Shown here one piece after another: positions 21,663 to 37,000 of a stretch of 64,000 bases of DNA. Both the position numbers and the translations under genes were made by a program. Location of the stretch: the UHGV virus genome UHGV-1366990, one strand, 5' to 3'. Source of the stretch: a virus. How positions within the stretch are numbered: the first letter of the stretch is position 1; the number at the start of each line of letters is the position of its first letter. Under the pieces are notes generated by a model, which saw nothing but the letters and a program-made list of their open reading frames with translations, had not been told where the DNA came from and made no database searches.

Positions 21663-22874
21663 ATGGCCGATTTTCTGAGTCGATACACAGGTCAGCAGAT
21701 TGATGCAATCCTTTCTTCTGTTGACGATAAAATAAGCAAGACTGATGTTGTCAACGATTTCTCTGTTGATGATCCGTTGTTCCCTCCGTCAGCTCATTTG
21801 ACATACGAGCTGAAGCGTTCTGTGGATAATATCTACGACACACTGGAAAACAAAGTGATCCGCACCGACGGTGGTGAACAAACGATCAACGGGCGGAAGA
21901 CTTTTGCCGCAGAAATCCGAGCCAATGCTGGTGTCAGTATCCCTACGGGGAAGAAACTTACCATCGCAGATGAGCCAGTTGATTCCACTGATGGCGTCAA
22001 TCTGTCTATGCTGCGCAAGCACGGCGTGAGTGAAGACACTGCCGGGGTTAACTCTGGTCTGAAAATCGAGTTGTTACCTGGCGGCTACAACAAACTCACT
22101 TTCGATGGCACAAATCTGGCCAATTACTCTGGTACTGGTGTGCCAACTACCATGTTACTGGTGAGTGGAACCGACACTGTCAAGTACGACACATCTGCGT
22201 TTGTGACTTCTATCTTCAATGATACGCGTTTCAACGCTTATCTGAAGGTTGTTGATTATGATGCCGATATGTTGGATATCCAGTCTCAGTTCAACACTGT
22301 CAACACCACTCTGGCTGCGAAGGTCAACACGTCGACTTACAACTCCAAGATGTCTAGCCTGGACACCAGTATACTGGATCTGACGAACAACAAAGTGAAC
22401 GTCAGTACGTATAACACGAAGATGGCGGCGTTGGACGGTTCCATCAGCGGCATTCAGAGTGATATCGGCACGATCAATACCACGTTGTCTGGAAAGGTCA
22501 ACACATCGACCTACAACGCCAAAATGACAAGCCTGGACGCCGACATTGCTGCCCGTGTGAAGATCGGGAAGACCAACCCAAGCGGTATCACTGTCTCTGC
22601 TTCTGGGAACTCTGCGTTGCCCGACTTCGATTTGGTGAACCTTTGCCAGGTGTTGATCAGTGCACAATGGGGTACAGGCAACGTCGTGGATACGTACCGC
22701 GTGACGATCACCCGTGACGGGACTATCAAGTCTGAGCTGTTGGTACAGAAGTCCACTTCCGGTACGGTGACATTCGCGGGTTCTGTAGTGTCTTCAAAAC
22801 TTCGTTTGACGATAACAAATGCGAACACGACGACTGCTTGCTCCGTTGACTACAATCTAGTCGCTTCTTTCTAA
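21663..22874 (+). CDS. tail fibre protein with internal tandem repeats
   Basis: 403 aa; three copies of KVNTSTYN.KM.SLD units; AAGGAG RBS. Confidence 0.6.
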   Translation: MADFLSRYTGQQIDAILSSVDDKISKTDVVNDFSVDDPLFPPSAHLTYELKRSVDNIYDTLENKVIRTDGGEQTINGRKTFAAEIRANAGVSIPTGKKLTIADEPVDSTDGVNLSMLRKHGVSEDTAGVNSGLKIELLPGGYNKLTFDGTNLANYSGTGVPTTMLLVSGTDTVKYDTSAFVTSIFNDTRFNAYLKVVDYDADMLDIQSQFNTVNTTLAAKVNTSTYNSKMSSLDTSILDLTNNKVNVSTYNTKMAALDGSISGIQSDIGTINTTLSGKVNTSTYNAKMTSLDADIAARVKIGKTNPSGITVSASGNSALPDFDLVNLCQVLISAQWGTGNVVDTYRVTITRDGTIKSELLVQKSTSGTVTFAGSVVSSKLRLTITNANTTTACSVDYNLVASF

Positions 22875-22882
22875 AGTGAAAA

Positions 22883-22925
22883 CTAAATACCCCTAGATGA
22901 AACGAACACATTTAGGGGTATTTGA
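22883..22925 (+). promoter_or_regulatory. late promoter CTAAATACCCC plus inverted partner GGGGTATTT just before start codon
   Basis: aactaaatacccctag...tttaggggtatttgaaATG; GGGG lies 9 nt before ATG. Confidence 0.45.
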
Positions 22926-22926
22926 A

Positions 22927-25900
22927 ATGGCTAATAAACCAACACAGCCTGTTTTCCCTCTCGGTCTGGCGGCTGAAGAGCAGTCTACTTTGGCTGGTGT
23001 CCTCAACACGGGTACGATTGAGCATGGACCAGATGCTGTCCTGACTTTACCCGAGGGTAATGCCAGCGCAGGACTCCCGTCTTCCGTTCGCTACAATGCC
23101 GACTCCGACGAATTTGAGGGCTTCTATGAAAATGGTGGATGGTTGCCGCTGGGTGGCGGTGGTATCCGCTGGGAAGTCCTTCCGCATGCCTCTACGACAA
23201 CACTCACTGAAGGGCGAGGCTATCTCATTAATAATACCACAGGGGCGTCTACAGTGGTTCTCCCGCTCCCTACGCGCATTGGTGATTCTGTTACTGTCTG
23301 TGACATGTATGGGAAGTTCTCTGTCTATCCACTGACCATTGACCCGAATGGAAAGGCTATGTATGGGAATGTGGAGGCCATGACGATCTCCACAGACAGC
23401 GCGACCGCAACGTTCACCTGGACTGGAGATGCTCGTGGCTGGATTATCACAGCAGGCGTCGGCCTGGGCCAGGGGCGTGTCTACAGCCGAAACATCTATA
23501 CCGATACTCTGGGCTTCCCAACCTCCGAAGTCACCCTGACAACCCAGCCACTTATCGTTGATGTCTATGTTGATGGTAAGCGCCTGGTGGAGTCCAAATA
23601 CTCCCTGAGTGGTTATGAAGTTCGCTTCAGCCCATCTCTTCCGGCTGGTGTTGAATTGCAGGTTGTTCAGTACGTTCCGATCCAATTGGGTCTCGGGTCT
23701 GGCGGGTCTGACAGCGGTATCACTCCTTGGGTCTACAACGGCGGTGCTGCAGTTGGCGGCGAAACCACTATCTCTGTTCCAGACTTGGCGCTGGGTGTTC
23801 CGTTCATCACCATCAACGGATATGCCAACTACCCTGGATTTGCGTACAGCTATGATGCAGGTGCCCACGTCCTCACCTTTGGTACTCCACTGGAAGCAGG
23901 CGACATGGTTGTCCTTATGCTGTCTGGTGAAGTTGCTGGGAATATCCCGGTCAACACCAGCGCAGGCTTCCTGGCGATAGAGGCACTGCGTCGCACCTAT
24001 GCCGAAGCGGGTTACAACCTGGTCGGAGGGAGTTTCGGTCGTGGTGGCACTGTCAACACAGCAACTGATGTTCTGCTCAATGAAGTGGATGGAAAGGCTT
24101 ATTCCTGGGGTGGAACTTTGCCTAAGACTGTGCCAGCTGATAGTACTCCCATCAGTAGTGGCGGGCTTGGAATTAGTGCGTGGGTGGATAGATCTGCTGC
24201 ACCTAATAGCTTTACTCAGACCGGAGCAGGAGCGGTTACAAGACCCGCTCAAGACAAAATGCGTGAAGAGTATAGCGTTCAGGACTTTGGGGCCAAAGTG
24301 AATAGTGGAGTGGATGAGACAGACAATATTAAGAAATGCCTTGCTCATGTAAAAGCGAAAGGCGGGAGAGCTAAAATTAACTTCCAGCCTGGGGAGTATA
24401 TGGTTCGTGGAACGGAGCTAATTGTCGATTTTTCTAATGTCATGTTGGAAGGTTATGGGGCCATACTTAAGCTTGTTGATAGCCCGACGGCGATTCAAGG
24501 CCCTGTGCTCAAGATTGCCCAGTACGGTGATCCAACTGTAAGGGGGACAGTTGAGAACGTCATAGTCAAAGGGTTCACGATTTATGGTAATAAGCTGAAT
24601 CAAATTCAAACCATGAACGCAGGTGGGGATGCGAACAATCCCGGATTTGTGTCTGAGGATGTCGTTAATTTGCATGTAGAGGACGTTATTGTCTATGATT
24701 GTGACGGTTATGGATTCCTCTTTGCTGGTTCAAACCTCCCCCATCGCAAGGGTGCGTACTTCAAGAACTGCTGGGCATTCGGTAACAACGTTGACGGATT
24801 TGATATCAAGGCAGGGTTTAACCATGTCACTCTCGACAGTTGCAGGTCGTGGGGTAACGGCTACGCGCCCATAGTTGCCCTACGCTCCGGAATGGGGTTC
24901 GATACCCGTGGCAAAGACGTTACCTTGATTAACTGCGTAGGTGGGGATGAGGGTAGCAACTATGCTGGCAACTTCCGCGTGCGCGAAAACGCAGAGGCGG
25001 GAATCTCATTCCTGGGGTGCCATAGCTATAACTCGCCTAATGGTACTTACGGCTTTATGTGCATAGGTGGTGGAAATACCAACGTGTCACTGATAGGCTG
25101 TACGTCTTCCAATGACGGAACCTCTATTAAGCATGAGCGAGGACACCTTACAGTAGTAGGGTTCAGGTCATGGAAGCCGAAGCTTCTGAGTATCCTGCAA
25201 TACCCGTCACAGTTTGTGTTGAGCACACTGACAGAAGCAGCTACATTCAGTTCCTATGGCGAATCGGTTACTATTTATCCTAGTGATTATCTCAGCGCTA
25301 CCGTAGGTTCTGAAATCAAGATCCCAACCGATGCTGGGACGATTTACCTCCTGGTTACACAGGCAGTTGCATCTACGCTGGTGTGTACGGTTCTGCGTGG
25401 AAATCTGGGGACGGCTGCGGCAGGAGCGAGTATCACTACTGTATCGACGGGAAGCCTGACGGTACATGGCGGAATATCTTATCAGTCTGCTGGTGATGCT
25501 GTTCAGTTTGCGTCTACCTTACAAACCCTTACTGATAGTTCAATGCCTGCAACTTTTAACGGGTTCGTTATAGAGGCACCAACCCGTTACGGAGTGAATT
25601 TTCAGGGTGGCGATGTGAGTTTTTATGGTGGCGCAATTCGAAACTGTGGCAAAGGGTCATCCTCCCCTGGATTTTTCGTCGGCAATGCAGCTACTGCTGA
25701 ATCGACATTCCGGTTGGACAGTGTATTCATGGGTAATGACGACAAATCTTTCACGCAGTCAGCTGGCATTCAGTTCCAGTCAACAAGCCTGGCGAAAGGG
25801 AGCGTTAGAGCGTGTAAATTCGCCGATAATGCCAACTCGCCAGTCATTGGCTCGCCATCTTCTGGTGTGCGGTTTGCAGACAATATCGGCTACACCAACG

Positions 25901-26166
25901 AGGGCACATTCTCTACAACAATTGATGTGACAACTGTTGGGGTGAAAACATTCTCAATTCCGCATGGGCTAAGCAAAGCACCTTCTGGTAAAGATGTGCA
26001 ACTGACCATCCAGCGGTCTGGGGCGGCGAATGACTACGTTCTCTCCACTCCGATGATTACCGGAGCAAGTTCTACAATTATTTCTGGGAGGGTGTCCGTA
26101 CTCACGGCTAGCGCAACCGCAGGTGAAGTCGCAACAGTAAACGCATTCATCAGCGCCAACCCATAG
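22927..26166 (+). CDS. tailspike protein 1 (beta-helix depolymerase-like)
   Basis: 1080 aa; Gly/Asn/Thr-rich repeats typical of right-handed beta-helix; internal YSWGGTLPKTV..STPISSGG module shared with tailspikes 2 and 4. Confidence 0.8.
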   Translation: MANKPTQPVFPLGLAAEEQSTLAGVLNTGTIEHGPDAVLTLPEGNASAGLPSSVRYNADSDEFEGFYENGGWLPLGGGGIRWEVLPHASTTTLTEGRGYLINNTTGASTVVLPLPTRIGDSVTVCDMYGKFSVYPLTIDPNGKAMYGNVEAMTISTDSATATFTWTGDARGWIITAGVGLGQGRVYSRNIYTDTLGFPTSEVTLTTQPLIVDVYVDGKRLVESKYSLSGYEVRFSPSLPAGVELQVVQYVPIQLGLGSGGSDSGITPWVYNGGAAVGGETTISVPDLALGVPFITINGYANYPGFAYSYDAGAHVLTFGTPLEAGDMVVLMLSGEVAGNIPVNTSAGFLAIEALRRTYAEAGYNLVGGSFGRGGTVNTATDVLLNEVDGKAYSWGGTLPKTVPADSTPISSGGLGISAWVDRSAAPNSFTQTGAGAVTRPAQDKMREEYSVQDFGAKVNSGVDETDNIKKCLAHVKAKGGRAKINFQPGEYMVRGTELIVDFSNVMLEGYGAILKLVDSPTAIQGPVLKIAQYGDPTVRGTVENVIVKGFTIYGNKLNQIQTMNAGGDANNPGFVSEDVVNLHVEDVIVYDCDGYGFLFAGSNLPHRKGAYFKNCWAFGNNVDGFDIKAGFNHVTLDSCRSWGNGYAPIVALRSGMGFDTRGKDVTLINCVGGDEGSNYAGNFRVRENAEAGISFLGCHSYNSPNGTYGFMCIGGGNTNVSLIGCTSSNDGTSIKHERGHLTVVGFRSWKPKLLSILQYPSQFVLSTLTEAATFSSYGESVTIYPSDYLSATVGSEIKIPTDAGTIYLLVTQAVASTLVCTVLRGNLGTAAAGASITTVSTGSLTVHGGISYQSAGDAVQFASTLQTLTDSSMPATFNGFVIEAPTRYGVNFQGGDVSFYGGAIRNCGKGSSSPGFFVGNAATAESTFRLDSVFMGNDDKSFTQSAGIQFQSTSLAKGSVRACKFADNANSPVIGSPSSGVRFADNIGYTNEGTFSTTIDVTTVGVKTFSIPHGLSKAPSGKDVQLTIQRSGAANDYVLSTPMITGASSTIISGRVSVLTASATAGEVATVNAFISANP

Positions 26167-26346: not shown

Positions 26347-26375
26347 AAACACCCCCATCTACGGATGGGGTTATT
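26347..26375 (+). terminator. intrinsic terminator after tailspike 1 (cccccatctacggatgggg + T-rich)
   Basis: 7-bp GC stem followed by ttattact. Confidence 0.45.
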
Positions 26376-26398: not shown

Positions 26399-28480
26399 AT
26401 GAGAACTCAATTTGATCAGGGTGGCGGTTCTACCGGGATCCTCACCAACAAAATGGCGATTGCTCGCCAGTTCGGCGTCAAACAGTCTGAAGTCATCTAT
26501 TTCTCTGCTGGAGTTGATTTATATGGGTACAAGGTCATCTACGACAAAACCACGCAGAGAGCTTACTCCTTACCTTCTGACATTACTGCTGGTACTACTG
26601 CCGTCAGTCTTAGTGTGGCTGCTGTACTCGTCCATTCAAAAGGCTCTGTAGACCTGGGGGCATTGGCCGTAACCCGTGGGGAATTTGTGACAGTTCCTGG
26701 TTCGTTTGCTCTGGGTGCGACGATCAATGTGAAGAACGAACTCCTCGAACGCAACGGTGTTCTCTATTATTGGGGAGGAGCGTTACCGAAGGTTGTTGCT
26801 CCTGGTTCCACTCCGGAAAGTGCGGGTGGTGTCGGGTCGGGCAAGTGGGTGGGTGTCGGGGATGCATCATTAAGGCAGCAGTTAGAGAGTGTCGCCATTT
26901 ATGACAAAGATTACCCAACTATTGCTGAGGCTTTCGGTCGTGCATATTACCTAGGGGCTGCTCTGGTTCTTACTTCGTCTAGAACCATCCGCATTCCAAG
27001 TGATGCACCTAGCCTGCAGTCGGTAGTCGATATCTGCGCAAGAATTAAATCTGACGTTTATCTTACTATTATTCTTGATGCTGGTTTTATCTTTACCGAG
27101 GAAACTTTAGTTGAAAAGCGTGATTGCTCATGGATGACTATTCAGTCAGATGATTCAGTGGTTAAGGTGTCTCCATCATTCTCTGGCATTAACTTAATTC
27201 ATGTTGTTAATTCGTTTGGACCCATCTGGGATATTCTTGCTGATATGGCGGGATCATCAGCAGGTAATGGCATTTATGTAAGACGAAACTCCGACATTGA
27301 AGTGCGCCCGGGAAAGGGAGTTATAAATGCCGTTAACACAGCAGTGGTATCTCTTCCATGCGGTATAGCTATTGTGGAAAGCTCCCGAGGGCATATTCCT
27401 TCCTCAAATTTTTCAGGAAATTACCGAAACCTTTGGGTATCGAAGTCCTCTCAGTGTAATGCGGAGGGGGGTAATTTTGATAATGCAACTGGGGACTTTG
27501 CAACCTATATTGTGCGAAACTCGCTGTGTCATCTCTCTTTGGCTACGGTAAACAACGCCGCACATAATGCTGTCTATGCAAACAACAGTCGCATTACCTT
27601 CCTGGAAGGGGAGGCAATTAATGCTGATACTGCACTTTATGCTGAATTTGCAGGTGTAATTTATACAAGGCCGCGTGATGGCAACATAACCAATATCTCA
27701 GGCTCTCGAATCAATGCAATTTCCGCCTCTAATGGTGGTGTTATTATTGCTGAGGGAATGACAATCTCTACAGCTTCTGGGTTTGGAATTACTGCCCGCG
27801 ACGGTGGGAAGGTCAGTGCGGTAGGGACGTCTGTTTTAGCTACCGGCACGGCGCTGAATGTTTATAACGAAGGGGAGGTAAATATAGCGGGGGATGGTAA
27901 CGTGATTTCCTCTTCTTCTACCGGGGTTAATGTAGTCAAGGCATACCAGGGAGGGAGAATTAACCTTGACGGAGCCGTAGTGACAGGTGGAACTAATGGC
28001 TTGCTCGCCGAGTCTGGTGGAACAATCCACGCGCGAGGTGTTAATATGTCTGGGCAGGCAGCAAACACAATACAAGCAACTGGTGGATACGTTAACGCTG
28101 ATAATTCCGTGCTTTCAAAATCTTCCTTTAATGTCGATGTTGTTTATGCTCGTCGCGGAGGCATTATTGATGCCAACTTTTCAACAATCACCGGAGGGAG
28201 AATCGGGGTGCATGCAGACGTTGGTGGAAGAGTATGTGTAAATAATTCCACTATTAATGGTGCATCAACTGGTGGTGTGCGGGCTACTGGCGGTGAGGTA
28301 TACGCGCAGTCAGCAATAATTCAAAACAACACCGGTAAGGATCTGACAGTTCTATCAGGGGGAGCACTACGCGCAGGCGGTGTAACGACAACTAATTCAT
28401 CTCCAGCCGGAACACCGAACCCCTCAGATGCAAATGCTGCTTTTAATACATTTGCTTCAGTGGGTTTTATTTTTGCATAA
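26399..28480 (+). CDS. tailspike protein 2
   Basis: 693 aa; N-terminal ~150 aa homologous to tailspike 4 N-terminus; beta-helix-like repeats; GAGG RBS. Confidence 0.8.
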   Translation: MRTQFDQGGGSTGILTNKMAIARQFGVKQSEVIYFSAGVDLYGYKVIYDKTTQRAYSLPSDITAGTTAVSLSVAAVLVHSKGSVDLGALAVTRGEFVTVPGSFALGATINVKNELLERNGVLYYWGGALPKVVAPGSTPESAGGVGSGKWVGVGDASLRQQLESVAIYDKDYPTIAEAFGRAYYLGAALVLTSSRTIRIPSDAPSLQSVVDICARIKSDVYLTIILDAGFIFTEETLVEKRDCSWMTIQSDDSVVKVSPSFSGINLIHVVNSFGPIWDILADMAGSSAGNGIYVRRNSDIEVRPGKGVINAVNTAVVSLPCGIAIVESSRGHIPSSNFSGNYRNLWVSKSSQCNAEGGNFDNATGDFATYIVRNSLCHLSLATVNNAAHNAVYANNSRITFLEGEAINADTALYAEFAGVIYTRPRDGNITNISGSRINAISASNGGVIIAEGMTISTASGFGITARDGGKVSAVGTSVLATGTALNVYNEGEVNIAGDGNVISSSSTGVNVVKAYQGGRINLDGAVVTGGTNGLLAESGGTIHARGVNMSGQAANTIQATGGYVNADNSVLSKSSFNVDVVYARRGGIIDANFSTITGGRIGVHADVGGRVCVNNSTINGASTGGVRATGGEVYAQSAIIQNNTGKDLTVLSGGALRAGGVTTTNSSPAGTPNPSDANAAFNTFASVGFIFA

Positions 28481-28494
28481 ATGGAATATTGAAT

Positions 28495-28788
28495 ATGAAA
28501 GATTTATCCCCTTTATCTCATGCAGTTTCAGTTATTACATTGCAGTGTTTATTCGGCATGCTTGCGGGGAAATGGCTTGAAGGAGGCGTAATGGGTTGCA
28601 TGTGGTTTATCGCCCGTGAGCACACCCAGGCTGAGTATCGCTGGCTCGCTCAGTTCGGCGCAGGGAAGCGCGCCAATATGCCGTGGTGGGGAGGGTTCTC
28701 CTGGCGCGCATGGAATGTGCCCAGTCTGCTCGACTGGCTTGTGCCGGTGCTGGCGTGCACTGTCGTTTATTTCGTAGCCACACTTTAA
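28495..28788 (+). CDS. small 3-TM membrane protein, paralog A (conserved AREHTQAEYRW..MPWxGGF..LLDWLVPV)
   Basis: 97 aa from ATG (track start 28489 is TTG); about 60% identical to 31525..31818. Confidence 0.55.
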   Translation: MKDLSPLSHAVSVITLQCLFGMLAGKWLEGGVMGCMWFIAREHTQAEYRWLAQFGAGKRANMPWWGGFSWRAWNVPSLLDWLVPVLACTVVYFVATL

Positions 28789-29040
28789 CTCCTGGCGGGA
28801 TTATTGATAGGTATCACCGCATTGATCTGCACTGCCTTTAAAACTACTGTGTATAAAACAGTAAAAGGAGTGCAGATCATGCCCCGCCGTCACGACATTC
28901 ACGCCGCATTTGTGGCCGCAATACAGCTAAACACAAAGGGCTGCCGATGCTTACGCACAGAAGACTTTATCCGCGAACTGGCAAAGGTCCACTGGTATTT
29001 CAAATAAATGACGAACCTTGATAGGAACAGAAGCCCTTCA

Positions 29041-29080
29041 CTAAATACCCCATATTGGCAAATCCTTTATGGGGTATTTT
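29041..29080 (+). promoter_or_regulatory. late promoter CTAAATACCCC with inverted partner GGGGTATTT
   Basis: cactaaataccccatattggcaaatcctttatggggtattttcatATG. Confidence 0.45.
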
Positions 29081-29083
29081 CAT

Positions 29084-31513
29084 ATGTCCAGACCAGTCGA
29101 AAGCATCTTTGGAGCCGTGGTCACCGCTCCTCACCAGATTCCATACACATACACAGCCGTAGGTGGCGAAACGTCCATCTCTCTCCCCGTATTCCCTGTC
29201 ACAGGCCTGGTCACTATCGGTGGCGGCGTACAAGTCCCACTCGACAACTATGAGATAGAAGGGAACGTCCTTCATCTTGGTGGACCTCTTGAACCGGGCG
29301 ACGTTGTGTACTGTCTGTTTGACAAGGTACTGTCTCCAGAAGGTCAGAACTCTACCACTCGCATCTACAAATTCAAATCAGTGGGTGGAGAAACTTCATT
29401 CACTCCAGACTTCACTTCCTATGGCGTGCAGTCGCTGTACATTGATGGGAAATACCAGACGCCGATTGATGACTACACCTACAACAAAGAGACTGGCGTT
29501 GTCAGCCTGAAGACCGCAATTGTCGGGGCTGGGAAATGGGTTGTGGCTGAACTGTATGTACAACAGAATTACCCGGCGCTGGCAGCTCCTGATGGTGCCG
29601 ATATGATCGGGGTTCCAACAACAGAAACTTCTTTGGGGGAATTGCTTTCATCTGATGATATGGCCATCAAATATGGTTATGTCAACCCAACAATCAGTGA
29701 AAGGCTTGGGCGTGAAGGGGCGAAGGTTGTTTTGGTCGGCGACAGTCTGAGCAGTTTCTTCAACATAGATTCTGTGAACACAGCGTCTATCTTTGAGTCT
29801 TACCTGCGCCGCAAGATCAGAGAATTCAATGGTACGGCGAAGTTCTACAACAGAGCCATCGGTGGCAAGCGTTACTATGACTTGGGTAGAAATGAACCGC
29901 CTCTTGATACTCTGACGAGCGGATACCCTTGGTATACAGACACGTCCAAGCGTTGGATGACTTACTTGGACGATCTTAAACCAGATGTGATCTTCTTAGC
30001 CTTTGGTATGAACGATGGTCCGGGATGGGACGTAGGTAACTTTCAGCAAGATAACTTCTTCAAGATGATGGAAGAACTTAAGTCCATCAGTTCAAGCCCT
30101 GAGTTGGTGTTCTGTACCAATATTCTTCCTTCTACAACACATGTTGATACCGCAGCAGAAGACCAGCAGCAGGGGCGTGATGCGATGGCTGGCTGGACAA
30201 GAAGTTTTGCCAGAAAGGCGGGATATAGCTTCCTTGATCTTCATAGACGTTTCAAATGCTTACGTGATGGTGTAGACCCGTGCATGGCTAGTTATGCCCG
30301 TAAAACCATTCAGAAAGTGGTGTCGCTTCCGTATGTACACACCGCCCAGTGTGATATGTATTCGGCTCGGGTAATTTTGATCGATCCAGCCGTCGCGACC
30401 ACAGGTATTAGATTCCAGTTGTCGAAGTATTCTAACAACTTCATGACCTTGAAATACGATACCACGACATCTCGCTGGATAACGACCGCATATACAGCTT
30501 CTTCGTCTTCCGTTGGCGTCGCTGACCAGAGTTCTATGCCTGGCCCAGCCCCGGCTGAGGGAACAGAGATATACTTCACCATGAACGGTGACGTTGTCGT
30601 AATAACCATCGGCATCAACACATATCCGGTGTTCAGCCGTAATATTGTGCGCTTCGGTGGTAAATTCTTCCCTGAAATCGGCGGAACTGGTGATATTCGG
30701 ATTGACATGATTGAGGGTACGCCCATCCCTGTTAAATCAGAGCTGACGGATTATGATTGCTACAACACCGACGGCGATGGCGGGAATGGCATCAACCACC
30801 CAACAGCCAAAGCGAGTTCCCGAATTTATACTCGCGTTGTTGACGACTGGTTCAGTATGCTTGCTGGGTCTGTGAGTTCCAGAAAGCAGGTGCTGGACAT
30901 TGACTTTGTCAACGGCACTGTTGTGGTGAGAAACCCGTATAGCCCAGAACTATCTTGTGAAGCCAAAATCAGCGCCGCCCTGACTTTTATCAACGGATCA
31001 CTCGCATACCAACGCGACGCTCAGGGACGTGTCATTGGAGCGGTATTTGGGGCTACGAACAGAGCATATGTTGACCAGGCGTTCTTCAATGCTTATGCGG
31101 GGAATTACAGCCAGCTCACATTTGAAGTAGAGTTCGTTGCCCCGGGCGCCCAGGCATACATCTGCACGTTCGGGGAAAACACCACAAGTGACCGAATCAT
31201 GGCTCAGGTCACAAGTGATTTACGCCCAAGAATCACGGCAGCCGTGGCATCACAAGCCAGTGACCTTTTCGGTTCGGCTTCGTTCCCATTTGTTGCTGGC
31301 CGGAAATACGCTTTGAAATTCTCTTTAGATTGTGAGAATTCGGTCGCGCGAATGTGGGGGCAGGACAACTCCGCGCGAGGTAACATCAACGTTACCCCTA
31401 TAACCGCCATATCTCCGGCGACATTATCCAAGCTGAAGTTGGGTTATGCGTCAACTGGAACATTTGGTGTTGATGTCGTGGTTTCAAGAATCAGAGTCTG
31501 GTTCTCCAACTGA
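29084..31513 (+). CDS. tailspike protein 3 with SGNH/GDSL-hydrolase-like motifs (putative glycan esterase)
   Basis: 810 aa; VVLVGDSLSSFFN (GDSL block I) and FLAFGMNDG (GxND block III) in central region. Confidence 0.8.
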   Translation: MSRPVESIFGAVVTAPHQIPYTYTAVGGETSISLPVFPVTGLVTIGGGVQVPLDNYEIEGNVLHLGGPLEPGDVVYCLFDKVLSPEGQNSTTRIYKFKSVGGETSFTPDFTSYGVQSLYIDGKYQTPIDDYTYNKETGVVSLKTAIVGAGKWVVAELYVQQNYPALAAPDGADMIGVPTTETSLGELLSSDDMAIKYGYVNPTISERLGREGAKVVLVGDSLSSFFNIDSVNTASIFESYLRRKIREFNGTAKFYNRAIGGKRYYDLGRNEPPLDTLTSGYPWYTDTSKRWMTYLDDLKPDVIFLAFGMNDGPGWDVGNFQQDNFFKMMEELKSISSSPELVFCTNILPSTTHVDTAAEDQQQGRDAMAGWTRSFARKAGYSFLDLHRRFKCLRDGVDPCMASYARKTIQKVVSLPYVHTAQCDMYSARVILIDPAVATTGIRFQLSKYSNNFMTLKYDTTTSRWITTAYTASSSSVGVADQSSMPGPAPAEGTEIYFTMNGDVVVITIGINTYPVFSRNIVRFGGKFFPEIGGTGDIRIDMIEGTPIPVKSELTDYDCYNTDGDGGNGINHPTAKASSRIYTRVVDDWFSMLAGSVSSRKQVLDIDFVNGTVVVRNPYSPELSCEAKISAALTFINGSLAYQRDAQGRVIGAVFGATNRAYVDQAFFNAYAGNYSQLTFEVEFVAPGAQAYICTFGENTTSDRIMAQVTSDLRPRITAAVASQASDLFGSASFPFVAGRKYALKFSLDCENSVARMWGQDNSARGNINVTPITAISPATLSKLKLGYASTGTFGVDVVVSRIRVWFSN

Positions 31514-31524
31514 CGGAGTCTTTA

Positions 31525-31818
31525 ATGAACATTGACATATCTCCTATTCTTCACGCCCTGGTCGCTACCGCCCTGCAAGCAATTGCGGGGTTACTCTTGG
31601 GGGACTGGGTAATCGGAGCAGTAATGGGCTGCACGTTCTTCGCCGCCCGTGAGCACACTCAGGCTGAATACAGATGGATCTCCCAGTCCGGTAAGGGTAA
31701 GCGATCCAACATGCCTTGGTATGGCGGGTTTGACTACCGGGCGTGGGATATCCCGAGCCTCCTGGACTGGTTGGTTCCTGTAGTTGGATGTACAGCGTTG
31801 TATTTCATAGCAGCATAA
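31525..31818 (+). CDS. small 3-TM membrane protein, paralog B
   Basis: 97 aa; GGAG RBS; same conserved core as 28495..28788. Confidence 0.55.
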   Translation: MNIDISPILHALVATALQAIAGLLLGDWVIGAVMGCTFFAAREHTQAEYRWISQSGKGKRSNMPWYGGFDYRAWDIPSLLDWLVPVVGCTALYFIAA

Positions 31819-31855
31819 GGCATTTGCCTGATTTATAAGAATATCAGAGGTGATT

Positions 31856-33541
31856 ATGAAACAGTTATTCAATCAAGGCGGGCAGGGTTCTACGGGAATC
31901 ATGTCCAACAAACAGGCGATTGCTCGGCGCTTCGGTGTCAAGCAATCAGAGGTCGTATACTTCTCCAGCGGTCAGGCGCTGACCGGGTTTAAGGTTATCT
32001 ACGATAAGCCATCTCAACGTGCCTATGCGCTGCCCTCTAACCTGGGGTCTGTAACTGCCACCACTTTGGTGGACGGCCTGCTCACGCACTCTGGAGGCAC
32101 TGTTGACCTGGGTGCACTGGCGGTACTGCGAGAAGAATTCGTTACTCTGGTGGAGAACTTCACGTCTGGGTTCACTATCCGTGTTAAGAATGAACTGGTG
32201 AGCGACGGTCAGTCTCTGTACCGCTGGGATGGGGCGTTACCAAAGACAGTGAATGCGGGTGGTTCGGTTTCTGCGGATGGGGTTGGCAAGGGTAAATGGG
32301 TTGAAACGAGCACAAGTAATCTCAGTTATTTTCCTAAACCGATAACTTGGGCCGGGTTTGCTGGAGGCGCAGCCTGGGATGGAGTAACTAATGACAGCAT
32401 CCCCTATCAGGCCGCCGCGCAATCTGGGCGAAAGTTTTTAATGCCTTATGGTGTGGGGAACATACCGGATTATTCTGTAGGCTTGTATTCTCCCAACTTC
32501 TCCGTTCTGGGTGAGGCTGAGCAGTTGGGTTCGTTACAAAATCCAGTTGACGATTTTCGACCGTCACACACAGACACAAAATATTCAAAGTATCACGAAA
32601 CGGATCCAGCATCTAATCGGTGGGATTCCTGTTCTATACATACAATTGTTAAATGTCCTCAGGGCGATGCTAATCCAAAAGGAAATGCGGCAGCTGTAAC
32701 TGGGTATGTAAGAGCAATTAGCAGCGAGGGTGGTGATCATGTTGGCGTACATGGTAGAGCAGAAGGTGATACCAGTTACGACTTCGGTACTGGGATGGGG
32801 TTGTGGGGTGGATGGCTGTCAGCCGTTTACAGACCTAATACAGGCTCAGCTGGGAAGCTAATAAAGTCTATTATTGGTTGTGAGATTGACGTGCAAAATG
32901 ATGGACCACATGCACAAAACCCCAATCCGGCTGGTGTTGGTGAGCTGCGTGGTCTCGCGGTAGGGAATACTGGCACCGGCCATCTTAATCAAGGCGTTGA
33001 TGTATTCTCTAGCAATAGCGGTGCGCGTGGAAGGTGGTGGATGGGCGTTCACGTGCGTGCTAATTCCATTGTAGGAAGACATCTGGTATCATCAGAGGAG
33101 GAAGTTGGTAATGCAATGGTGATTGCTGGAGCGGCATCGTCAGGGACGCGTTACGGCGGATTAAAATTTAGTAAATATCCCTACACAGCGGTAGGACAAG
33201 GAGGTCATCTTTCTTATGGAATTGATTTCAGGGAGGCAACAATTCGCTTACAAAACGCGATTGTAATGGGTCCTCAGCACCGGATTACATGGGATCCTGA
33301 CACTGCAAAGGGTGTTGCGGTAGAGACAGAGGGAGGGGATGTAATTACTTTCCGGGGATATAATATAGCCATAAATAACTCCAAAGTTTTGGGGGCTAGA
33401 CAAACTGGTATCTTTAATATGTCGGGGATAGCAGATGGAACCTCATACAATACAGAAACCGTTACACTTGTAAATCTTGCCAGATACCTAAAGAAGGTAA
33501 CTGATGCATTAATATTTCATGGCCTTATTGGCCCAACTTGA
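31856..33541 (+). CDS. tailspike protein 4
   Basis: 562 aa; N-terminus MKQLFNQGGQGSTGIMSNKQAIARRFGVKQSEV parallels tailspike 2; AGAGG RBS. Confidence 0.75.
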   Translation: MKQLFNQGGQGSTGIMSNKQAIARRFGVKQSEVVYFSSGQALTGFKVIYDKPSQRAYALPSNLGSVTATTLVDGLLTHSGGTVDLGALAVLREEFVTLVENFTSGFTIRVKNELVSDGQSLYRWDGALPKTVNAGGSVSADGVGKGKWVETSTSNLSYFPKPITWAGFAGGAAWDGVTNDSIPYQAAAQSGRKFLMPYGVGNIPDYSVGLYSPNFSVLGEAEQLGSLQNPVDDFRPSHTDTKYSKYHETDPASNRWDSCSIHTIVKCPQGDANPKGNAAAVTGYVRAISSEGGDHVGVHGRAEGDTSYDFGTGMGLWGGWLSAVYRPNTGSAGKLIKSIIGCEIDVQNDGPHAQNPNPAGVGELRGLAVGNTGTGHLNQGVDVFSSNSGARGRWWMGVHVRANSIVGRHLVSSEEEVGNAMVIAGAASSGTRYGGLKFSKYPYTAVGQGGHLSYGIDFREATIRLQNAIVMGPQHRITWDPDTAKGVAVETEGGDVITFRGYNIAINNSKVLGARQTGIFNMSGIADGTSYNTETVTLVNLARYLKKVTDALIFHGLIGPT

Positions 33542-33708: not shown

Positions 33709-33942
33709 AAATGAGAATACTGGTGGGCTATATATCCGAGTAGAACTTCCGCGAGCACATGGTAAGTACCGCGTGCAGTTCGATCTAATTCAGTATGTAG
33801 GCCATCCCATTACTGGAGAAAGGTAGAGGTGGGTCGCGAAACCATGGAATGCGACTACGACCTTGATGGTCCTAACGTGTTCGAGCAATGCTACAATTAC
33901 ACCAAGACCCAAGTCCCGTATCAAACTGTTGACTGTTAACAG

Positions 33943-33970
33943 AATGCCTCCACGGAGGCATTTTTATTTC
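33943..33970 (+). terminator. intrinsic terminator (gcctccacggaggc + tttttattt)
   Basis: Perfect hairpin followed by T-run. Confidence 0.5.
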
Positions 33971-34033: not shown

Positions 34034-37000
34034 ATGCAAGAAATGAACCTCAACCGCCGCCCATATTGGGATGACTGGAATCCAGAGAAGCGTTTTTCGC
34101 GCATCCTATTCCGTCCGGCACCTATCAAAGTTCAGACGCGTGAACTGAACCAGATACAGACCATCTTCCAGGATCAACTGGAGAAACTTGGCAACCATCT
34201 GTTCAAAGACGGTTCAATGGTTATCCCCGGCGGTCTAACGATCACCAACACTGCTGTGTCCATGAAGTTCACTCTGGCTGGTGGTAGTGAGTTCACTGAT
34301 CTGGAAGGTATCTCCGAACTCTATGTTCTGGGCAAGGACAACAATGCGAAAGCACGCGTCCTGTCCTTGGAACGTTATCCAGCTGAGCCGGATACAATGT
34401 ATGCCATCTTAGAGATTACTGAAAGTGGTAGTTCAGACGGTTTCGAAGCTGGTGACAATCTATATTTCAACACCTATGACGTGAACGATAACTTCATCCG
34501 TGTCGGCTATGGTGTGGCCGATACTGTTGGCGGTTCGATTGTCGCTCGCATGACAAAGGGTGTTTATTTCGTTCGTGGTATGTTCCTGGATGTTGAACCA
34601 ACCACTTTGATCGTAGACAACGCATCGAACTCTACATCTCACCGCATTGGCTTCAAAGTTACAGAAACAATCGTGACCGAAGCAGAAGATGAAAGTCTGT
34701 TCTCCAATGCTCAGGGTACTCCGAACTCTAAAGCCCCTGGTGCGCATCGCCTGCGCGTCGACCTCGTGTTGTCTCGCTACGGTTATGATGAAGAAGTGGC
34801 CGACTTCGTTGAACTGGCGAAGGTGAAAGACGGTCGTGTTCAGTCCATGGTCACCCAGTCAACGTACAACATCCTCGAAGACGCCATGGCTCAGCGTACC
34901 TATGAGACCAACGGGGATTACAACGTCTCTACTCACCAGATCGACCTACGCGAACATCTGAAACAGAACAACAACGGTGGCGTATACACTCCGGCCGAAG
35001 GTGGCGACGAAAGCAAATTCGTGGCGGTTATGAAGCCAGGCATTTCCTACGTTCGTGGTCGTCGTATCGAAAACCTCGGCGAAGAGCTGGTCATAATTGA
35101 CAAAGCCCGTGACACTGATATCCTGAACAACAACCCTGTGGCTGTTTCGACTGGCAACTATCTGGTGTCCAAGAACTCCAAAGGGGTTCCGGTTGTCTCC
35201 CGCACAATCCGCTACAAGTTCCTGAACGCATCCAGCGATGTGCAGGCCACCGCCCTGCTGATTTCGGCAGAGCGCTCTGGTACTGAATTCCGTCTGTATA
35301 TGCGCGACCTGGTTGTGACTGGGGACATGGGTACGGTGACCAAAGTCGCTTATGAAGAAAGCGGTACAACGATGTTCTCTTGCGAACTGGAGTCCAATCA
35401 GTTCAGCCAGAGTTCAGCAATTGACCTGATCTTCCCTCTGCCTGTATTTGGTGTGAAGACTCTAGCACCTACAGGCACCATCGACATCAACTACACCGTC
35501 CTGCGGTCAAACAAGATCACGTTGAACGCCGCTGGTGCAGGCTCAATCTCTGCTCCTCTGGGTTACAGCTTCAGCCCTGAGTTTTCACTGTACTCCGCAG
35601 CGAAGGCAGATGGCACTGCAGCTCAGTTTGATATCTCTTCGGGACTGTCCCTGGCTGGTACTCCGGTTGGTTCAGCACTACAGATTTCCCTGGGCGCGGG
35701 GTACGCCAACCAGTCTATCAACCTGTTGACATTGATGGTCCGCACCACAGCGACGATCAAGACCAAGACTGTTACCGAAGCCACCGAGACTGTGACGTTT
35801 ACTGCGGCGGCCAGCGCACAACTTGGGAACCATGATGGTTACAAGCTGATCAGCGTGAAGAACGCAAATGGCGCTGATGTCACCTCTAACTTCACTCTGG
35901 ACGGCGGCCAGCGTGATGCTGCATACTACCTTTCTAACCTCATATCGTCCGCTGGAGCCATTTCAGGGACGTTCACAGTGGTGTACCAGTACTTCGCTCA
36001 CAGTTCTGGTGATTTCTTCACAGCGGACTCCTATTCGTCCATCAACTACCCAGACATCCCGAACTATGTTTCATCCAGTTCTGGTACTGTGTATGGGTTG
36101 GCCGACAGTCTGGACTTCCGTCCCAAGATCACCAGCGGAGCGTCTGACACGGACATGGTTCGCCCGAACACCGCGATCATCCTAGATGCAGAGTACTATC
36201 TGCCTCGTATTGATGCTGTGTATCTGGCAGACAACGGTGTGTTCAACGTTGCTCGTGGTGTGAGTTCCAACAACCTGGCTTCCCCTGCGATTCCAGACAA
36301 CGGTATGCGTCTGTATGAATTGATGATCCCACCATACACGGCCAACATTGACGACATCCAGATTCGTACTATCGACAACCGCCGCTACACGATGCGCGAT
36401 ATCGGTAAACTGGAGACCCGTATCTCCAATGTCGAATATTACACCTCACTGTCTCAGCTGGAATCCTCGGCGATGTCACAACAGGTATTCGATCCAATTA
36501 CTGGCAACCCGCGCTTCAAGAACGGTATCGCAGCAGACCCGTTCAAAGACTTCCGTCTGATCGACGATTTGTCTGCAGACTGGGTGGGTTCAATCGACAC
36601 TGACAATGGTCGCCTACGCCCGTTTGTTCAGCAGAACGCGATTGACCTGACGCCAGTCGGTTGGAACAACGTTCAGGATGGCATGGTTGTATGCAACTAC
36701 ACCCGTGAGATCTCTGTCCGCCAGGACTATGCAACCACGACCATCAACGTGAACCCGTATGCAGTATTCAACTGGGAAGGTTTCCTGAAACTGAACCCGA
36801 CTACTGATTACTGGTTTGAGAACTACTATGTTACTCCACGTGTGATCAACGAAACGATCAACACCCGTGGTGCGATCAAAGAAGGTTCTGTGTATGGCAC
36901 ATGGCGTACTGTGTCCGTGTCTGAGCGTGTGTGGGAACCACATGGCGCAGGTGGTGTATGGTGGGGCTATCGCTACCGCACGACTGTGTCCACCCGTGAC

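Follow-up and report, generated by a model that had tools for sequence, protein, structure and literature searches.

Why would a virulent phage carry, directly behind two of its tailspike genes, two related genes for a small membrane protein? The question is raised by a 64,000-nt stretch of the virus genome UHGV-1366990 (hereafter the window), which contains two open reading frames (ORFs) of 97 amino acids each, ORF A (28495..28788, + strand) and ORF B (31525..31818, + strand). They belong to a virulent, Agtrevirus-like phage of the Ackermannviridae, whose nearest GenBank relatives in the conserved flank of the window are the Agtrevirus-type Shigella phages MK-13 and Ag3 and Escherichia phage AV101 (89-95% identity). 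The comparisons described here give good support to the view that the phage copies are the trailing gene of a receptor-binding module, and that they move between unrelated phage families together with the receptor-binding head. As to what the proteins do, we can offer a tentative proposal, which concerns the assembly of host surface glycans.

Two intact genes of an unnamed membrane protein family

ORF A begins 14 nt past the stop codon of a 693-aa tailspike (TSP2, 26399..28480, + strand; Pfam Tail_spike_N, E 1e-18, and PHROG tail-spike families), and ORF B begins 11 nt past that of an 814-aa tailspike with an SGNH/GDSL esterase head (TSP3, 29069..31513, + strand; Pfam Lipase_GDSL_2, E 1.6e-12, and a PHROG tail-spike N-terminus). 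Both ORFs run in the direction of the tailspike genes and are tightly packed within the tailspike block. ORF B has a GGAG ribosome-binding site; for ORF A a TTG at 28489 offers an alternative upstream start, and the ATG at 28495 is backed by homologues. The two proteins are paralogues with 58 of 93 aligned residues identical (62%, ungapped; BLASTP E 9e-49), and they share the motifs AREHTQAEYRW, MPWxGGF and LLDWLVPV, which also form the conserved core across their family. Hydropathy and an AlphaFold2 model agree on three transmembrane (TM) helices. A preliminary description of the locus, made from the letters of the DNA, had reported the paralogous pair, its motifs, its three helices and its place behind tailspikes 2 and 3, all of which are borne out.

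Both frames are real and intact, as is supported by purifying selection on each. Between ORF B and its counterpart in L168, a 157.6-kb metagenomic sister phage that has the same layout and in which both small ORFs are also intact, there are 14 synonymous and 3 non-synonymous changes, corresponding to a ratio of non-synonymous to synonymous divergence (dN/dS) of 0.057 (binomial p 5e-7). ORF A, compared with the prophage copy in IMG/VR locus L025, has a dN/dS of 0.154, the same constraint as that on the adjoining spike head (0.162), and the family-wide median is 0.145 (720 pairs). The preliminary description had further proposed a repeated unit of tailspike plus membrane protein. Both ORFs do trail tailspikes, but the repetition did not arise within this genome: when ORF A and ORF B are compared in register, synonymous sites are saturated (pS 0.77; dN 0.30), and the longest exact nucleotide match is 15 nt. 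A recent tandem duplication was rejected as the origin of the pair because of this saturation and because the cassettes that hold the two ORFs differ in history, and the ORF A and ORF B units were acquired separately.

Profile comparison places both proteins in PHROG 1443 (phrog_1443), with residues 3-95 of ORF A aligned to positions 2-94 of the 97-position profile (E 2e-37) and ORF B matched over its full length (E 2e-41). The one other PHROG matched by either ORF is 34165, a fragment family that equals the C-terminal half of the phrog_1443 protein, surviving as remnants. The PHROG 1443 entry is listed under 'unknown function' without annotation, and neither the link to receptor-binding proteins (RBPs), nor the topology, nor the cellular relatives are recorded there. 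In an exhaustive profile search, the family comprised 427 representatives at 50% identity (198 with E ≤ 1e-10), almost all of which stand alone as proteins of 90-110 residues. At 90% identity the enteric branch has 255 clusters and the Sphingomonadales branch 355.

Searches for holin or other known-family homology were negative, in keeping with the statement in the preliminary description that the ORFs could not be assigned to a known family. ORF A and ORF B have no match in Pfam, NCBIfam or PADLOC (0 PADLOC families at E ≤ 1), and 95 diverse members of the family gave only noise against Pfam, including a single Phage_holin_8 match (E 0.0036) that lies below any cut-off. The family profile found nothing among Protein Data Bank (PDB) sequences except a chance match to a NatA subunit (E 0.57), and no PDB or fold relative of the family was found. 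Among the functions that might be expected beside a tailspike, Gtr/Oac serotype conversion gave no GtrA, GtrB or acyltransferase match (Pfam and NCBIfam, E ≤ 0.1 to 1), the Tfa and Peptidase_S74 chaperone profiles of Pfam and PHROG were not matched by ORF A or ORF B, and SieA, Imm and other exclusion families gave no Pfam match, the SieA motif FxRYPxEAxxFNK being absent from the family alignment. Literature searches by topic, motif, PHROG number and protein accession found no paper on the family. By these comparisons phrog_1443 appears to be an unnamed family without homology to any characterised protein; what is new is an unrelated protein family within a known category, that of accessory genes linked to receptor-binding genes.

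The AlphaFold2 model of ORF B (pLDDT 95.9) has helices at residues 6-25, 28-55 and 76-96. Across the 95 diverse members R42, E43, Q46, E48 and W74 are invariant and H10, A47, R60 and P85 are conserved in at least 90%; D81, Y49, R50, W65, G68, R72 and S78 are additionally invariant in the enteric branch, and the invariant signature is very polar for so small a membrane protein. His10 lies at one end of helix 1, Arg42-Glu43 and Gln46/Glu48 lie where helix 2 exits the membrane, a Trp-rich loop (MPWWGGF..R.W) follows, and Asp81 and Pro85 stand at the start of helix 3. Judging from the helix boundaries, with helices 1 and 2 forming a hairpin, H10 should lie beside E43, and D81 at the same end of helix 3. 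Among 369 members, the short N-terminal tail contains 65 Lys/Arg versus 154 Asp/Glu residues and the C-terminal tail 626 versus 199, while the central loop averages 5.0 Lys/Arg and 4.1 Asp/Glu per protein. In addition, two members have N-terminal extensions ahead of helix 1, one resembling a lipoprotein signal (P0208, lipobox LVGC) and one a Sec signal peptide (P0216). A consistent reading of this charge bias and of the two extensions is an inner-membrane protein of three spans with its N-terminus outside and its C-terminus inside (N-out/C-in). Such a topology would turn the conserved polar cluster (H10, E43 and D81) and the REHxQAEYRW / MPWWGGF / R.W loop to the periplasmic face of the inner membrane.

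The trailing gene of a receptor-binding module

Synteny was surveyed in IMG/VR for the best 80 of 406 relatives. At nearly all of these 80 loci a co-directional ORF ends no more than ~160 nt upstream of the small gene, in many cases with a gap of 0-40 nt or with overlapping start and stop codons. The annotated representatives of the recurring upstream types are all RBPs, namely lambdoid side tail fibres (phage_tail_N), P22-type spikes (Head_binding), pectate-lyase spikes and Peptidase_S74 fibres, and the carriers include sipho-, podo- and myoviruses, both temperate and virulent. The survey of tailspike synteny in other phages that the preliminary description had called for thus shows receptor-binding neighbours to be general across the annotated loci. 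In phage 21 (L001, 5710-5988) the gene is CPT_21_24, annotated 'putative membrane protein'; in phiHAP-1 it is ORF19, flanked by the tail-fibre assembly gene and the sheath gene; and in Vreelandella P2-like prophages it has the same RBP-trailing position.

This synteny in IMG/VR and in named phages, taken with the cassettes described below, shows that the small gene adjoins a receptor-binding gene and is exchanged together with it. Pairs whose RBP C-termini are alike by 90% or more have small proteins of at least 75% identity in every case, and similarity of the small protein correlates with that of the upstream head (Spearman 0.45). The correspondence has exceptions, as 58 of 220 near-identical pairs of small proteins sit behind unrelated heads. 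Decayed copies occur at the same position: 40 nt after the endosialidase spike of vB_Eco_ZCEC08 (L171, PP213477, ~34165-34367), one of the K1-specific virulent siphoviruses, and directly after the last tailspike of the Kuttervirus Salmonella phage vB_SalA_KFSST3 (L182, PP994976, ~106486-106674), in both cases without a GenBank feature.

The gene is also common in bacterial genomes. It is found in 1,892 of 5,426 complete Escherichia coli genomes (35%), with a median of two copies and up to 7, all of them annotated 'hypothetical protein', and 63 of these places are on plasmids. The BL21 lineage encodes WP_000355360.1 in a degraded Rac/Qin-like prophage remnant beside an rRNA/tRNA cluster (2228354-2228647 on the Rosetta2/BL21 chromosome NZ_CP083274, L181); the lysis genes of this remnant, essD and rrrQ, lie elsewhere and not beside the small gene.

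The history of the ORF A unit can be read from IMG/VR locus L025, which matches 26855..29002 (+ strand) of the window at 88.2% nucleotide identity over 2,152 bp. The match begins after the N-terminal anchor of the spike (aa ~108) and stops just short of TSP3, and hence delimits a mobile cassette of the TSP2 receptor-binding head, ORF A and a truncated phrog_3893 gene. L025 encodes, in order, a J-like tail protein, an RBP, the small gene, phrog_3893 and a UmuD-like gene, and the donor type is a siphovirus-type prophage; megablast of L025 against GenBank phages found no relative, so that the donor type remains an uncultured prophage. The phrog_3893 gene, which encodes a conserved soluble protein of unknown function, follows the membrane gene at a distance of ~95 nt in at least 21 loci (tblastn) and is 79 aa long in prophages versus 42 aa in the window and L168. 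What is left of it in the window is a 42-codon ORF (28879..29007, + strand), the N-terminal half of the gene, which has a good ribosome-binding site and shows where the imported TSP2 cassette ends on its 3' side. The truncation to 42 codons implies that the temperate pool was the source and the Ackermannviridae genome the recipient.

ORF B has a different history. The window and L168 are 90.5% identical up to position 29610, 29611-31524 (the TSP3 head) has no blastn match in L168, and homology resumes exactly at the start codon of ORF B to run through ORF B and the N-terminal anchor of TSP4 (31525..32370, + strand; 94.8% over 846 bp, blastn) before it ends again over the TSP4 head. The ORF B proteins of the two phages are 97% identical despite their different TSP3 heads. 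Because homology restarts at the ORF B start after a non-matching head, ORF B is in this lineage part of the backbone and not of the swapped head. The TSP3 esterase head itself, together with the first 41 codons of ORF B (29591..31648, + strand), is 96.9% identical (megablast) to the fibre gene region of Phapecoctavirus anhysbys (MN850648, locus L004, 135677-137734). The junction lies 124 nt inside ORF B, and the small gene of anhysbys is a 42-aa truncated remnant, anhysbys_263. The TSP3 head was recently exchanged between two unrelated myovirus families (Ackermannviridae and the Phapecoctavirus lineage, Stephanstirmvirinae). A 67-aa database protein (P0264) joins the conserved N-terminus of Ackermannviridae spikes (MRTQFDQGGGSTGI...) in frame with the C-terminal half of the membrane protein; it has evidently arisen by deletion or recombination in some other phage of that family. 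A 2023 study put forward the conserved sequences that flank receptor-binding domains as recombination hotspots across taxa (PMC10408124). The exchange boundaries mapped here fit that proposal, and show in addition that one flank is a gene whose protein is under selection.

The other genes around the two ORFs complete a tailspike block that spans 21.6-39 kb of the window, with every gene on the + strand. It contains a 403-aa protein (21663..22874, + strand) and the first spike of 1089 aa (22897..26166, + strand; Pfam and PHROG scans), both from the ORF listing, and, immediately downstream of ORF B, TSP4 of 563 aa (31850..33541, + strand; Pfam Tail_spike_N, E 5e-13); it closes with a 1669-aa protein of the same listing downstream of TSP4. 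A consensus scan found two strong terminator-like hairpins, one upstream of TSP2 (26353..26370, + strand) and one downstream of TSP4 (33941..33964, + strand), which enclose TSP2, ORF A, TSP3, ORF B and TSP4. Their placement on either side suggests that TSP2 to TSP4 may form a single transcription unit separate from the first spike. A consensus scan for sigma-70-like sites found none adjoining either small ORF.

Two side observations concern the neighbours of the gene in other genomes. In lambdoid prophages phrog_1361, a second small conserved protein of 89-93 aa with unknown function and no Pfam match, separates the side tail fibre from the membrane gene or from a second fibre; at the phage 21-type locus the separating protein has 92 aa, with the fibre gene on one side and the small gene on the other. 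It occurs in L001, L040, L181 and many IMG/VR loci and is absent from the window, and it may be a partner or a chaperone. In the jumbo phage PS1 of Aeromonas (L170, NC_070998, 10459-13827) the small gene is not directly behind a fibre, and the tail fibre lies two genes downstream. The upstream PS1 protein of 1122 aa, labelled 'DarB-like antirestriction', matches terminase-large-subunit, primase and helicase-loader PHROGs instead.

Cellular relatives and candidate functions

Clues to function come from relatives in cellular genomes. A profile search extends the family to Beta- and Alphaproteobacteria, and in Sphingomonadales, with their own branch of clusters, the gene is chromosomal. A Capsule_synth gene (KpsC/KpsS-type) is the co-directional upstream neighbour in 11 of 44 Sphingomonadales loci, a count that we down-weight because those loci share one arrangement in related genera. 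Of seven sampled contexts, five are surface-glycan loci (Kdo, capsule or exopolysaccharide (EPS)) in at least four arrangements. In Porphyrobacter AAP60 (P0304) the order is KdsA, a fatty-acid hydroxylase, an SDR, a sulfatase-family protein, Capsule_synth, the small gene, an epimerase, UDP-glucose dehydrogenase and a PhyH dioxygenase, and a metagenome contig (P0367) has the same arrangement, with the Capsule_synth stop overlapping the start of the small gene. In N. pentaromativorans (P0399) a Wzx-type flippase, two glycosyltransferases and an outer-membrane protein precede the small gene, and CsgG-like lipoproteins, PhyH, KdsA, KpsF and KdsB follow it; in N. chloroacetimidivorans (P0410) the gene comes after GT4, Capsule_synth, KdsB, KpsF, KdsA and PhyH; and in P0372 it follows Wzz-like/BY-kinase-like and PEP-CTERM proteins of an EPS locus. 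The remaining two contexts place it between a PPIase and a DsbA-like gene (P0403, Novosphingobium SL115) and after a PilZ gene with SecA nearby (P0422). The clusters at L165 and L180 (Porphyrobacter-type) and at L172 and L177 (Novosphingobium) resemble a Kdo-capsule or glycosphingolipid pathway with several unassigned parts.

The reading that we favour, tentatively and in the knowledge that it may well be wrong, is that the ORF A/B family, while travelling with receptor-binding heads, modulates the assembly of host surface glycans from the periplasmic side. We arrive at it because of the cellular contexts, the Trp-rich, charged surface that is predicted to be periplasmic, and the precedent set by conversion and exclusion genes beside RBP genes. 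The protein would bind or process a lipid-linked glycan intermediate at the periplasmic face, or would alternatively act there on a membrane enzyme that handles the intermediate (a polymerase, ligase, flippase or exporter). The outcome would be an altered or reduced surface polysaccharide, O-antigen or capsule, of the kind recognised by the linked spike, making the small protein the 'remodel' half of a recognise-and-remodel cassette. The phage might benefit in that competitors using the same glycan are excluded and in that fewer progeny are lost on debris or already-infected cells, and the cellular relatives would do an ordinary version of the same job inside capsule, EPS or Kdo loci. Receptor masking or superinfection exclusion, as offered in the preliminary description, is plausible for ORF A and ORF B, and the homologues in capsule/EPS loci lend it indirect support. 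A wider version of the proposal is more doubtful: the family would have come from bacterial capsule, EPS or glycolipid loci, been captured by phages, and been swapped with heads across sipho-, podo- and myoviruses as a generic modulator of glycan assembly.

The closest analogue of the proposed mechanism would be the O-antigen polymerase inhibitors, epsilon15 gp22 and Pseudomonas D3 Iap. Iap is a tiny membrane protein, an O-antigen polymerase inhibitor encoded beside a tailspike gene, and gp22, the 'alpha polymerase inhibitor' of epsilon15, is likewise a tiny membrane protein beside the tailspike gene that interferes at the inner membrane with O-antigen assembly. There is no homology between phrog_1443 and the epsilon15 proteins (hhalign probability 0.04% to gp22 and 0.35% to gp23). 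Moreover, gp22 has 66 aa and two TM helices, is encoded on the opposite strand, has a polymerase partner and is prophage-expressed, whereas phrog_1443 is co-directional with and coupled to the spike gene, lacks a partner polymerase and has cellular homologues.

A second parallel is with small envelope proteins encoded beside an RBP gene: llp of T5 adjoins pb5, and cor of phi80, N15 and T1 adjoins tail-fibre genes. As may also be the case for phrog_1443, recognition and protection can be inherited and exchanged together, and such genes occur in virulent and temperate phages alike. Llp is a receptor blocker (PMC9586334; bioRxiv 2026 Llp:FhuA paper). Llp and Cor sit in the outer membrane as lipoproteins and plug one particular protein receptor, FhuA, whereas phrog_1443 is an integral inner-membrane protein, the phage copies of which lack a lipobox; it has no sequence or fold similarity to them, and it accompanies glycan-specific spikes of many specificities.

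Several considerations weigh against a role in glycan assembly. The mechanism is drawn from context, the family having no homology to a characterised protein, and the predicted topology is based on charge bias. The small protein is ~60% identical behind heads of unrelated specificity, so it would not be specific for the glycan of its neighbour and any target must be generic. Because the gene is tightly coupled to tail genes and no promoter-like site was seen, expression seems to be late, with the tail genes, which is late for altering a glycan-covered surface; classical conversion genes are prophage-expressed instead. Several virulent phages have only decayed copies and most Ackermannviridae lack the gene, which is thus dispensable for spike-bearing virulent phages generally. 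Finally, two of the seven Sphingomonadales contexts (PPIase/DsbA-like and PilZ/SecA) are unrelated to glycans, and the contexts are phylogenetically clustered, one arrangement accounting for the 11 of 44 loci.

Among the rival explanations inner-membrane superinfection exclusion, with the protein blocking entry of an incoming phage genome at the periplasmic face and leaving glycans untouched, is the most probable, though still unlikely. In prophages the gene sits at the border of the tail module and the accessory region, in P2-like prophages at the position of P2 Z/fun, and its abundance in E. coli prophages would suit such a role. So would a small three-helix inner-membrane protein with a conserved surface that is probably periplasmic, the compartment in which SieA (PMC10883804) and Imm act. 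P22 SieA and T4 Imm are likewise small multi-pass inner-membrane phage proteins, and SieA has three predicted TM segments and a conserved motif, the one absent from phrog_1443 (PMC10883804). SieA, however, has 162 aa, a cytoplasmic conserved motif and its own promoter, and is confined to P22-like phages, whereas phrog_1443 has 97 aa and a probably periplasmic motif, occurs in all tail morphotypes and shows no sequence match to SieA. Known exclusion proteins of this kind are machine-specific, but the same small protein is found in sipho-, podo- and myoviruses with unrelated genome-delivery machines; many copies depend through translational coupling on late tail genes, and not on a promoter active in the prophage; the homologues outside prophages, in Sphingomonadales glycan loci, are hard to account for; and Imm and the other exclusion families of Pfam were unmatched, as was PADLOC. 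Less probable again, and in our view improbable, is that the gene has a role in temperate phages only and has hitchhiked here with captured prophage spike heads, contributing nothing and perhaps persisting in part as a 3' homology arm for head exchange. The halving of the next prophage gene at the far end of the ORF A cassette fits this, as do recombination end points at or in the small gene (124 nt into ORF B in anhysbys, the ORF B start in L168, and the P0264 chimera), the decayed copies behind spikes in anhysbys, ZCEC08-type siphoviruses and Kuttervirus KFSST3, and the hotspot proposal for flanks of RBP domains (PMC10408124). A passenger would not be expected to show the substitution pattern of ORF B, which speaks for selection at the level of the protein and not of the DNA, nor to be intact in both copies in the window phage and L168, nor, in the case of ORF A, to be constrained like the adjoining spike head; and the 15-nt longest match makes a poor homology arm between the two copies.

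A lysis-related membrane protein, whether holin- or antiholin-like or another late permeabilising factor, is very unlikely. Class I holins of the lambda S105 type have ~100 residues, three TM helices, an N-out/C-in topology and a basic C-terminal tail, and phrog_1443 has the same, its tail being short and its topology predicted; apparently late expression would also suit lysis. Against this, neither Pfam nor PHROG gave a holin match beyond the noise-level hit in the 95 members, the gene is outside the lysis cassette with the carriers' lysis genes elsewhere (essD and rrrQ in the BL21 remnant), chromosomal homologues lie in glycan loci without lysis genes, and a predicted periplasmic loop of 35 residues, rich in Trp, highly conserved and with invariant charged and aromatic side chains, is not typical of holins. 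We give still less credence to an assembly or maturation factor for the adjoining tailspike or fibre, whether as chaperone or as membrane platform, the 'spike maturation' of the preliminary description. The slot right after an RBP gene, often with translational coupling, is the classical position of tail-fibre assembly proteins, and the small protein co-varies with the upstream head. Spikes and fibres nevertheless fold in the cytoplasm, while the conserved part of the small protein is predicted to face the periplasm, and Tfa and S74 chaperones are soluble cytoplasmic proteins or C-terminal domains, not integral membrane proteins. No fold is common to the upstream heads (esterase, pectate lyase, S74-chaperoned fibres, Laminin_G), some loci already have a chaperone of their own (Peptidase_S74, or the separate Tfa of phiHAP-1), ORF B of L168 is nearly unchanged although the TSP3 head before it differs, more than 200 Ackermannviridae lack the gene and yet assemble four spikes, and the cellular homologues occur without any fibre gene.

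Implications for phages and their hosts

Host-range engineering is directed mainly at receptor-binding modules, and so is comparative work on phages specific for O-antigen or capsule. The boundaries mapped here show that receptor-binding heads have passed directly between a temperate siphovirus pool, an Ackermannviridae phage and a Phapecoctavirus. Whatever its mechanism, the family is well suited to experiment, having 97 residues, a near-perfect model, few invariant residues, a copy in BL21 and clean contexts. If the glycan-assembly proposal is true, spike swaps made with or without the small gene may behave differently in engineered phages, and a third of E. coli genomes would hold one to seven copies of an unrecognised modulator that could affect surface polysaccharide, serotype expression and phage susceptibility. 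The Sphingomonadales homologues, for their part, would then suggest that Kdo-capsule or glycolipid biogenesis has a small component so far missed.

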